Positions 8,907-14,902 of a DNA stretch of 23,847 nucleotides are shown piece by piece (the first letter of the stretch is position 1; each line of letters begins with the position of its first letter). The translations under genes and the position numbers were made by a program. Under the pieces are notes generated by a model. It did not search any database. It was not told the origin of the DNA and was given only the letters and a program-made list of their open reading frames with translations. This DNA is from Candidatus Altiarchaeota archaeon (GTDB lineage: Archaea; Altiarchaeota; Altiarchaeia; IMC4; SCGC-AAA252-I15), in NCBI GenBank assembly GCA_043813075.1, contig JBDRLL010000026.1, forward strand, positions 1 through 23,847, given 5' to 3'.

Positions 8907-9577
8907 CGCCCACCACCAGGCCTGTGCAACAACATCCTCCAGAGTATCCTGAAACCATCGTAGACATTAGTACCCTTACTAATTGAATGGCTGGTATATA
9001 TTACCTCCACCGGAACCTCCCGCATCACAAGACCCTTCCGTCGGACCTCCAGGAGAATCTCGGAGGAAACCTCATAACGGTTGGACTTCACCCTTATGGA
9101 ATCCACAGCCCTCCGGTTGAACGCCCGCAACCCGCTCTGGGAGTCGGAAGACCACACGCCAAACAACAGGAACGTGAGCACGTTAAGAAGACCGTTGCCG
9201 ACCCGCTTCACCAAAGGCATGCGCGCCAGATTGATCTTGCGGACGCCGATCACGACGTCAGCGTCAGACAAAGCATCAACCAGCTTCACAACCTCGCCGG
9301 GATTATGCTGGCCGTCAGCGTCAAATGTCACGACAACATCATAACCCTCCCGCCTGGCAACCTCGAAGCCGGTGGATACCGCAGCACCATAACCCATGTT
9401 CAATGAATGCCTGACCAAACGAAACCCAGCATCACGCGCCAGACGCACCGTATCATCCAAACTCCCATCATCCACAATCAAGACGTCATAGGGAAGCATG
9501 GAGAGGGAATCCAACACGCCAGCTATAGAAGAGGCCTCATTAAACGCGGGAACCACCAGCAAAACCCTGGAAGCCAT
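8903..9577 (-). CDS. Glycosyltransferase family 2, DPM1-like polyprenol-phosphate glycosyltransferase
   Basis: VPAFNE, VDDGSLDDT, NMGYGAA, TFDADGQH, DSQSGLRAF. ATG 9577 preferred: TTTATATA box 21 nt upstream on the minus strand (9599-9606). Confidence 0.92.
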   Translation of the reverse strand: MASRVLLVVPAFNEASSIAGVLDSLSMLPYDVLIVDDGSLDDTVRLARDAGFRLVRHSLNMGYGAAVSTGFEVARREGYDVVVTFDADGQHNPGEVVKLVDALSDADVVIGVRKINLARMPLVKRVGNGLLNVLTFLLFGVWSSDSQSGLRAFNRRAVDSIRVKSNRYEVSSEILLEVRRKGLVMREVPVEVIYTSHSISKGTNVYDGFRILWRMLLHRPGGGR

Positions 9578-9616
9578 ACAAGATAAATAATTACAAAGTA
9601 TATAAACCATTCCGGA

Positions 9617-9627
9617 TTATAATTAAA
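9617..9627 (+). promoter_or_regulatory. TATA box for the structured element/tRNA-Gly transcript
   Basis: TTATAATTAAA starting 25 nt upstream of the element at 9642; no other TATA box before the tRNA. Confidence 0.5.
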
Positions 9628-9641
9628 ACCGCCATAAAAAC

Positions 9642-9726
9642 GCGCCCATTGTCGAACGGCCCAGCCCGTTCACGCCTGAGGGCGGCTTCGGCCATCCCGG
9701 CCTCAGCCCCCCGGAACATGGGTGCC
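9642..9726 (+). ncRNA. Putative tRNA-like structured RNA (or tRNA pseudogene) upstream of tRNA-Gly
   Basis: Closing stem GCGCCCAT/ATGGGTGC; internal stems GAACGG/CCGTTC and CTGAGG/CCTCAG; GGC-TTCG-GCC hairpin; 5' end duplicates the tRNA-Gly 5' end. Confidence 0.45.
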
Positions 9727-9736
9727 AAGAAAAAAC

Positions 9737-9807
9737 GCGCCCATGGTCTAGTGGTATGACTTCAGCCTTCCAAGCTGAATGCTCGGGTTCGAGTCCCGAT
9801 GGGCGCA
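9737..9807 (+). tRNA. tRNA-Gly (anticodon TCC)
   Basis: Cloverleaf: GCGCCCA/TGGGCGC acceptor, D loop AGTGGT, TCAGC-CTTCCAA-GCTGA anticodon arm, TCGGG-TTCGAGT-CCCGA T arm, discriminator A; CCA not encoded. Confidence 0.97.
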
Positions 9808-9966
9808 CACCTTCTTCCTTCACGATAGGAAAGCACGGCTTTCCCGCGCCCAAGAAGGCTTCGCCTCCTTTGGGGAAAGAAAAAGACTGTACCAGAAATA
9901 AACGCATCCTGTGTCACCGAGCGATAGCGAATGTGGCACACTGGAGTGAACCGACAGTGTCGGCTC

Positions 9967-9982
9967 CCCGACGGGCGCATAC
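9967..9982 (+). repeat. Degenerate direct repeat of the tRNA-Gly 3' end (att-like)
   Basis: CCCGACGGGCGCATAC vs CCCGATGGGCGCACAC (9795-9810), 14/16 identical. Confidence 0.55.
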
Positions 9983-10101
9983 TACTTTTCTTTGAGCCTT
10001 ATGTACGCTGGTTTTCTCTTAAATTTCTCATACCCCATTGGAGATTCGACCCCGTTATTCGGTTTTATTGGCTTTCTTTTGCGTTCCCTGGCGTGTTTTA
10101 G

Positions 10102-14565: not shown

Positions 14566-14662
14566 GTAAACATATTCAAGCCAAGAAGAGAAAAACCCCA
14601 CCCCAAAAACAACAACCACACAAACCCAATTTATAAGAACAAAAAGCCAAAATAATAGCCAC

Positions 14663-14765
14663 GAACGGAATGCAAACGAGACATGCGTCTCGTTGCACAC
14701 GAAGAGCAAACTCTTCGTTGTGCTCCGTTCACACGCACGGCGTATTCAGCAAAGCGGAATACACC
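14663..14765 (+). other. Highly structured leader upstream of tRNA-Gln
   Basis: GAACGGA/TCCGTTC stem enclosing hairpins AACGAGAC/GTCTCGTT and ACGAAGAG/CTCTTCGT, then hairpin GGCGTATTC/GAATACACC; TATA TTTATAAG at 14630-14637. Confidence 0.5.
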
Positions 14766-14778
14766 ATAGAAAAAAAAC

Positions 14779-14902
14779 AGCCCTGTAGGGTAGTGGCCTA
14801 TCCTTCCGGTCTTTGGCGACCTTTAATAAAGGTCGACGAAAAAAAAAATCGACCTACGGTCGAAGTTAACCGGGGACGGAGGTTCGAATCCTCCCAGGGC
14901 TA
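14779..14902 (+). tRNA. tRNA-Gln (anticodon TTG) with 51-nt intron (14817-14867) at position 37/38
   Basis: AGCCCTG/CAGGGCT acceptor (A1-U72), CCGGT/ACCGG anticodon stem, CT-TTG-G|intron|A loop, GGAGG-TTCGAAT-CCTCC T arm. BHB motif: CTTT/GAAG helix, bulges GG|C and TT|A, outer helix GACC/GGTC. Confidence 0.95.

Follow-up and report, generated by a model that had tools for sequence, protein, structure and literature searches.

The window analyzed here, a stretch of 23,847 nucleotides from a genome placed in the archaeal order Altiarchaeales, contains an intronless tRNA-Gly(UCC) gene. According to ARAGORN, run on the whole assembly, it is the only gene for the UCC glycine isoacceptor, and tRNA-Gly(GCC) is likewise encoded once. 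Upstream lies an A/T-rich promoter-like stretch with two TATA-like boxes (Table 1), the first of which (9599-9606) may instead serve a divergent GT2 gene that starts at position 9577 on the minus strand. Between promoter and gene, six leader bases and the first 12 bases of the tRNA occur a second time, so that a spare target copy, X' (AAAAACGCGCCCATTGTC), precedes the functional copy, X (AAAAACGCGCCCATGGTC). The two form the direct repeat AAAAACGCGCCCAT[T/G]GTC and are identical at 17 of 18 positions, which is beyond chance and bears out the statement of an initial annotation that the insert begins by copying the start of the tRNA. They enclose a two-hairpin insert of about 69 nucleotides that starts exactly at 9654, where its head hairpin abuts X' at distance 0, and ends at about 9722. 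The interval of 77 nucleotides between the repeat copies holds neither an ORF nor an integrase-bearing element.

Table 1. Features around tRNA-Gly(UCC), in positions of the window
Feature	Position	Strand	Basis or remark
Promoter-like A/T-rich stretch; TATA-like boxes at 9599-9606 and 9617-9624	9599..9628	+	Sequence reading; putative promoter
Spare target copy X' (6 leader bases and tRNA-Gly bases 1-12; T for G at tRNA position 9)	9636..9653	+	
Head hairpin of the insert: GAACGG / loop CCCAGC / CCGTTC	9654..9671	+	Fold; head-only model, 13.4 bits
Insert body: ACGCC linker, second hairpin with symmetric UC/UC internal loop, element 3' end ..GGAACATGGG	9672..9722	+	Fold; alignment with G012, G002 and trpE-site copies
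Strand ATGGGTGC, with two alternative pairing partners, X' (9642-9649) and the 5' strand of the actual tRNA (9737-9744)	9718..9725	+	Folding
Functional target copy X	9731..9748	+	
tRNA-Gly(UCC), without intron	9737..9808	+	ARAGORN; Rfam tRNA model, 70.2 bits
Second hairpin-headed insert behind tRNA-Gly; head variant GAGCCGAC-ACT-GTCGGTTC	9821..9966	-	Head abuts the spare tRNA 3' end
Spare, diverged tRNA-Gly 3' end (versus 9795-9820)	9967..9993	+	Local alignment, score 23

A scripted check of 30 loci (L006-L035) recognized the 5' end of tRNA-Gly(UCC) in 23, namely in this genome and 22 relatives; it was not recognized in L008, L015, L016, L019, L026, L032 and L035. The upstream repeat of tRNA bases 1 to 12 is present in 5 of the 22 relatives and absent from 17. 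One of these repeat-less loci (G010) has, by reading of its start, the same divergent neighbor as the window; the identification as GT2 comes from a scan of the window gene only, to which the G010 neighbor was matched by reading. A BLAST search with 9560-9830 against 40 relatives returned the tRNA part only and no copy of the element, and homologous inserts were recognized by reading the regions upstream of the relatives' tRNA-Gly genes. In two relatives, G012 (L021) and G002 (L014), a hairpin follows directly after GTC at tRNA position 12/13, the same junction as in the window, with the head stems GCACGC/GCGTGC and GGACGG/CCGTCC, respectively. Aligned over their full length to the window insert, they are identical at 60 of 99 and 59 of 93 positions. 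The duplication in G012 measures 52 nucleotides and includes the A/T-rich promoter region, with a TATA-like box as far from the spare copy as in the window; a decayed version of this duplication is found in G002.

Other structures were seen at the same gene in further relatives. An unrelated two-hairpin insert with a 16-nucleotide target duplication sits at tRNA-Gly position 12/13 in G038 (L028, 1413-1500), which suggests that elements of several families land here recurrently. Two exact tandem units of 103 nucleotides lie upstream of tRNA-Gly in G006 (L024, ~1297-1502), each containing tRNA-Gly bases 1 to 25 and a CTTTCTTTCTTT / AAAGAAAGAAAG hairpin module that also occurs inside the tRNA-Gly introns of several relatives (L022, L023, L025 and L031) and behind tRNA genes. 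In G020 (L007, ~1286-1400), a truncated tRNA-Gly-like copy, with a D-loop insertion of about 60 nucleotides and without a 3' acceptor strand, stands 217 nucleotides upstream of the intact gene.

Hairpins of this kind head the members of a repeat family, here called E, whose canonical head is GNACGG-CTCGCT-CCGTNC-ACACGCG. The pattern GNACGS-N6-SCGTNC-(0-2)-ACGC matched 41 times, in 15 of 49 genomes of Altiarchaeales, against 9 matches for a reversed-pattern control; one match, in G004, looks false. A head-only covariance model found at least seven further E copies in this genome, with scores of 25.5 to 46.3 bits. In an alignment of 45 heads, 17 of them distinct, from which the copies of the window, G012 and G002 were left out, 96% of the cells in the head helix are paired, three of six pairs have changed on both sides, and the covariation score was reached by none of 500 shuffles. 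Since the search pattern fixed most stem positions, this information comes mainly from pairs 2-17 and 6-13. Behind the head, a second hairpin varies in sequence and keeps its pairing across copies. The exact 24-nucleotide head occurs in 28 stretches of a species-representative genome collection, mostly from Altiarchaeota, with the remainder in a few MAGs labelled Thermoplasmatota, Nanoarchaeia/Nanoarchaeota, Woesearchaeota, Methanosarcinales or Euryarchaeota and in several labelled "uncultured archaeon"; it occurs in 21 metagenome contigs as well, and viral contigs gave no match to it. Rfam has no family for the window copy or for six loci with canonical copies, and full-text literature searches, whose coverage excludes subscription journals, returned no description of such elements. 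E appears to be a family of very small mobile elements, carried by uncultured archaea, that has not been described before.

Individual copies show additional features. In many of them (e.g., L057, L066 and L059), the head sequence GGCTCGCTCCG can pair with a nearby downstream CGGAGCGAG(T/C)C; this hairpin is longer than the head hairpin and excludes it, so that two alternative folds are built into E. A MAG labelled Thermoplasmatota (G049, L117-L121) has five heads within a longer shared sequence, which in three of the five copies reaches upstream and more than 150 nucleotides downstream; comparison by eye of the ORF lists of two copies revealed no obvious shared gene. On the minus strand of the window, 19112-19123 matches 12 nucleotides of the head core exactly (CGGCTCGCTCCG), with the rest of the head absent, which is probably chance.

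A duplication test covered 62 distinct copies with enough flank, 55 of them with a canonical loop, after eight had been dropped for a short flank or N. A direct repeat of 15 to 95 nucleotides, with the upstream copy ending no more than 3 nucleotides from the head, accompanies 31 of the 55 canonical copies, as opposed to 1 of 97 control positions chosen at random within the same loci. The shortest distances from head to repeat are 57 to 67 nucleotides, and E proper is thus about 60 nucleotides long. At the trpE/trpG junction of this genome, a 63-nucleotide element separates two 62-nucleotide copies of the target; G004 has the sequence once and uninterrupted, with 25 nucleotides at the junction as opposed to 150 in this genome. 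The extra 125 nucleotides equal 63 of E plus 62 of duplication, and this empty site confirms that insertion was accompanied by duplication. Most targets are tRNA loops or gene ends. Insertions at tRNA genes are found in D-loops (positions 12-21), where the anticodon loop begins (32/33), at 3' ends and on the T-loop side of antisense tRNAs; in protein genes, they lie within the first or last tens of bases. At targets read from their flanks, one duplicate always leaves the gene intact. Our data establish the family, its target duplications, its insertion behavior and an empty site.

These observations bear on whether the window locus could be the remnant of an integrase-mediated event (attL/attR) with a deleted interior, or simply a tandem duplication of tRNA-Gly in decay. 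In archaeal tRNA genes, inserts flanked by partial tRNA duplications are classically taken as the sign of an integrative element (PMC3293823). Nevertheless, the same insert of some 60 nucleotides is found at numerous unrelated targets, where duplications measure 15 to 95 nucleotides, no ORF would fit into the 77 nucleotides between the copies, and the interior is not tRNA sequence. We regard both of these origins as highly improbable.

The assignment of the window copy itself to E follows an indirect route. Its head stem is a perfect 6-bp helix, its loop matches CTCGCT at two of six positions, and it reads ACGCC for ACACGCG. The head-only model gave it an E value of 0.041 within the window, where a partial chance-like match scores higher, and a genome-wide head-only search at E values up to 10 did not list it. 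The body of the window copy aligns to that of G012 with a score of 24 (shuffles, 11.9 +/- 2.0; 1 of 500 as high). The bodies of G012 and G002 in turn align to canonical bodies with scores of 52 (18.7 +/- 2.0) and 33 (18.6 +/- 2.3), respectively, neither of which was reached in 200 shuffles. Compared directly with canonical bodies, the window body is not significantly similar, with 100 of 200 and 87 of 300 shuffles scoring as high in two tests, and its membership therefore rests on the link to G012 and G002, on an insertion site common to all three, on the hairpin and on the duplication next to it. The two-hairpin plan agrees with membership as well. The copy displays what characterizes E elsewhere: a target duplication that ends exactly at the head (18 nucleotides, 17 identical, distance 0), a sequence relationship, albeit via G012, and filled and empty sites, with the tRNA-Gly locus free of any upstream repeat in 17 of 22 relatives and the trpE/trpG site empty in G004. 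From these sequence comparisons, we read the window copy as an old, worn member of E and the copies in G012 and G002 as clear members.

Taken together, we consider it very probable that the 84-nucleotide element in front of tRNA-Gly(UCC) is an insertion scar, left when an E element landed in this gene with duplication of its target, and that it now serves as a structured pre-tRNA leader. In such a history, a noncoding, two-hairpin E element of about 63 to 69 nucleotides would have landed between bases 12 and 13 of the tRNA, and the duplication would have taken in the 6 bases ahead of the gene together with its first 12 bases. The downstream duplicate would have rebuilt an intact tRNA gene, X' (9636-9653) and E (9654 to ~9722) would have remained in front of it, and the sequence between E and the tRNA would have shrunk in this genome to about 14 bases devoid of a TATA box.

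This history also offers an explanation for the tRNA-like appearance of the locus. The stretch from 9642 to 9726 (85 nucleotides) has a predicted best fold of -43.1 kcal/mol (z = -3.2; 1 of 200 shuffles equally stable), composed of a terminal stem of 8 to 10 bp, the GAACGG/CCGTTC hairpin and a long second hairpin (GGCU-UC-GGCC...GGCC-UC-AGCC) that recurs in the G012 copy. In the closing stem, whose third pair is G3-U, ATGGGTGC (9718-9725) pairs with GCGCCCAT (9642-9649). The initial annotation had proposed a tRNA-mimic noncoding RNA, that is, a functional small RNA cut by RNase P and RNase Z and perhaps recognized by AlaRS through G3-U70. Such a reading draws on the 8-bp acceptor-like stem with its G-U pair, on the stable fold, and on the position directly 5' of a tRNA within one transcription unit. 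The GAACGG/CCGTTC hairpin named in the annotation lies at 9654-9671 as described, and its helix is supported by covariation in the family. The interior pairing proposed alongside it (CTGAGG/CCTCAG with a C-UUCG-G hairpin) reaches -30.7 kcal/mol, compared with -43.1 kcal/mol for the best fold, and it is the best fold that recurs in G012. No alternative cloverleaf was detected by ARAGORN, which reports only 9737-9808, and the Rfam tRNA model (RF00005), like all 4227 families, is silent on 9636-9730 even at E values up to 10; D, anticodon and T arms are all missing.

AlaRS-type acceptor identity consists of G3-U70, usually together with A73 as the discriminator. The G-U pair that had been taken for this identity is indeed present in the window, but the discriminator is C, and in both G012 and G002, pair 3 is G opposite A, which makes G3-U70 private to this genome. 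The insert does possess the complementary 3' strand ascribed to it, but the 8-bp closing stem exceeds chance only marginally (p ~0.04 against shuffles, before correction), and by sequence reading, closure falls to five pairs in G012 and four in G002, where the predicted 85-nucleotide fold draws a longer, interrupted one. Half of the closing strand belongs to the element itself, as the ATGG of ..GGAACATGG aligns with the conserved 3' end of the trpE-site copies (..TGTTCGTGGA). Among 32 family copies with duplications, only two, one of them the window copy, have a spare copy whose complementarity to the remaining insert attains p <= 0.05, which is the chance rate, and a pairing between tail and spare copy was accordingly rejected as a family trait. 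A functional tRNA mimic is, in our judgment, extremely improbable. What the insert has in common with tRNAs and tRNA-like structures, though it lacks their arms, is a terminal stem of 7 to 8 bp with a tRNA-identical 5' strand, a likeness that exists because the target was duplicated. A remodelled tRNA-Gly duplicate, the other reading offered initially, describes the first 18 bases correctly, but the interior is a hairpin-headed insertion element and not derived from a tRNA. Similarly, the homologs and the covariation that had been named as a check both exist, but they belong to a mobile-element family rather than to a tRNA-like gene. The 8-bp closure with its G-U pair, private to the window copy, would be either chance or a secondary adaptation that shields the true 5' strand from X'.

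With respect to expression, E and the tRNA are only about 14 bases apart (9723-9736, ending in AAGAAAAAAC), the 50 bases before these are rich in G+C, and sequence reading found no A/T-rich box within 9672-9736. Since there is no TATA box between E and the single tRNA-Gly(UCC), transcription would have to start upstream of X', where the stretch at 9599-9628 is the only candidate promoter for insert and tRNA alike. Judged from the sequence, the tRNA would be transcribed from the promoter upstream of X', and X' and E would form a structured 5' leader of about 95 to 105 nucleotides; the insert is thus most likely transcribed as part of the precursor and then removed by RNase P, with the cut predicted at 9737. 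Because several duplications reach 30 to 50 nucleotides upstream of the tRNA, their boundary was not retained as a candidate for the 5' end of the transcript. Of the listed sequencing runs, none from RNA and one from DNA contains part of this stretch; contigs of the DNA run stop at 9581 and otherwise cover the tRNA alone.

Folding of the whole precursor complicates this picture, with a competing arrangement predicted at -80.4 kcal/mol versus -72.9 kcal/mol for the native one; in the former, the tail is bound to the true 5' strand, and X' to the tRNA 3' strand. A simple leader model does not explain this predicted misfold. The leader could instead have been exapted: after loss of the inner promoter, the 3' end of the insert would have evolved complementarity to X', freeing the true tRNA to fold, and the closure would be adaptive. 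Consistent with this, the full 8-bp closure and the loss of the duplicated promoter are combined in this genome only, and folding indicates that X' and the tail can otherwise trap both acceptor strands of the tRNA. However, the argument concerns a single genome, the p value of the closure is the uncorrected one, and the true 5' strand is just as good a partner for the tail, a pairing that wins at equilibrium (probability ~1) and is the opposite of protection. We consider exaptation an unlikely, minority reading beside the insertion scar.

The E head is also found at the start of tRNA introns. It opens introns at the canonical position in tRNA-Arg(GCG) (L075) and in tRNA-Trp(CCA) (contig 11 of this genome). 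ARAGORN accepts neither gene as it stands and accepts both once the intron is removed in silico, with 80 nucleotides taken out yielding tRNA-Arg(GCG) and 171 nucleotides yielding tRNA-Trp(CCA). This raises the possibility that the window insert itself behaves like an intron, in which case X' would supply the tRNA 5' strand, and E together with the second target copy would be removed by the splicing endonuclease at equivalent positions of the repeat. The shared head and the predicted equilibrium fold of the precursor, which is exactly that arrangement, both fit. Against this stand the lack of a bulge-helix-bulge motif evident to the eye at the boundaries, where archaeal introns have one, the presence of U9 in place of G9 in X', and the retention by G012 and G002 of a separate promoter before the intact copy; RNase P processing of an intact downstream copy is, furthermore, the simpler route. 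Splicing at this locus is accordingly an improbable alternative, and we retain the insertion scar with a leader removed by RNase P.

Introns of about 70 to 180 nucleotides at the canonical position of tRNA-Gly(UCC) were observed in L017, L021, L022-L025, L027, L029, L031 and L034; such an intron is present in G001, of the same genus, and absent from this genome and from G002, and intron and upstream insert vary independently of genus. ARAGORN reports only 21 tRNAs in this assembly, which is 89% complete, and standard detectors probably miss many tRNAs of this genome on account of long introns or inserts.

How E moves can be approached by comparison with known systems. Its traits are one precise end at the conserved hairpin, a variable far side, no target consensus, landing at loops or stem-loop borders, and duplications of 15 to 95 nucleotides. 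This combination is not known to fit any transposase class. SINEs and other products of target-primed reverse transcription have one precise end, a variable other end or tail, duplications of variable length and no target consensus, and by analogy the traits of E most resemble such target-primed copying. However, E lacks an A-rich tail, and RVT_1, the reverse transcriptase partner that a SINE-like retroposon would have in the same genomes, occurs in 6 of 49 genomes, in 1 of 15 with E, and not in this genome (89% complete), with all of these counts drawn from incomplete MAGs. Palindromic elements derived from IS200/IS605 rely on a Y1 transposase and insert without target duplication; E has duplications, and Y1_Tnp was found in 17 of 49 genomes and 5 of 15 with E among these incomplete MAGs and is absent from this one (89% complete). 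Casposon- or Cas1-type integration produces a fixed duplication of about 14 to 15 bp, and Cas1, present in 11 of 49 genomes and 2 of 15 with E among the same incomplete assemblies, is missing from this genome (89% complete). None of these three candidate mobilizing enzymes co-occurs with E among the incomplete MAGs, and it is possible that a host-enzyme route or an unrecognized factor moves E.

Similarity to small repeats is likewise partial. MITEs, REP/BIME and the Rickettsia palindromic elements are small, noncoding, hairpin-forming, multicopy and tolerated at gene ends; in MITEs, terminal inverted repeats go together with a short target duplication of fixed length, and REPs have no target duplication. 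E shares the general traits but differs from MITEs and REPs in having one conserved head at a precise junction and duplications of 15 to 95 nucleotides, and comparison of its ends by eye revealed no terminal inverted repeat. Among archaeal tRNA genes, Fujishima et al. (2010) reportedly found related short sequences as introns in different tRNAs of Thermoproteales, implying mobility, and are said to describe neither target duplications nor leader or trailer insertions. In contrast to such intron transposition, the E head marks both intron starts and insertions whose target is duplicated.

The closest parallel in print comes from Caldiarchaeum subterraneum, where a tRNA-Thr 5' fragment accompanies a 1.8-kb insertion that encodes a recombinase (PMC3293823), a case likewise put forward as relevant to the gain of tRNA introns and the fragmentation of genes. 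The two cases have in common a directly repeated tRNA 5' end flanking an insert before an intact tRNA. The window insert differs in being about 69 nucleotides long, noncoding and headed by a conserved hairpin, and E differs in also landing at the ends of protein genes, with duplications of very variable length.

Considering these comparisons, we put forward as a tentative and decidedly speculative proposal that E is a new kind of archaeal mobile DNA that has neither a reverse transcriptase nor an IS200-type transposase nor a Cas1 of its own to move it and generates duplications of 15 to 95 bp. The landing site would decide the fate of a copy, be it as a canonical tRNA intron, as the structured leader or trailer of a pre-tRNA, or as an innocuous tail on a protein gene, and the leader copy described here would have evolved its acceptor-like closure since its tRNA depends on read-through. 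If this were true, E-type elements would be a direct source of archaeal tRNA introns, whose route of arrival remains open according to a 2026 preprint (10.64898/2026.10.13.758758). Independently of this proposal, E is a defined family, with sites both filled and empty, that lends itself to tests of intron gain, tRNA gene fragmentation and an unusual insertion chemistry: one and the same head is found as an intron start, as a D-loop or anticodon-loop insertion and at tRNA 3' ends, and the duplications preserve the interrupted gene. There is also a practical warning, in that such inserts convincingly mimic tRNA-like or split-tRNA-like signals before real tRNA genes.

Two further inserts were observed in the window. 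The one behind tRNA-Gly (Table 1) has the border between T-loop and T-stem of this tRNA as its landing point. The other, at 14663-14765, has an E-type head (GAACGG...CTCCGTTC ACACGCA) with two extra hairpins nested in its loop and lies 13 nucleotides upstream of an intron-bearing tRNA (14779-14902) that Rfam finds and ARAGORN misses. Since the sole TATA-like box (14630-14637) is upstream of this insert, the tRNA behind it also seems to be read through the insert.
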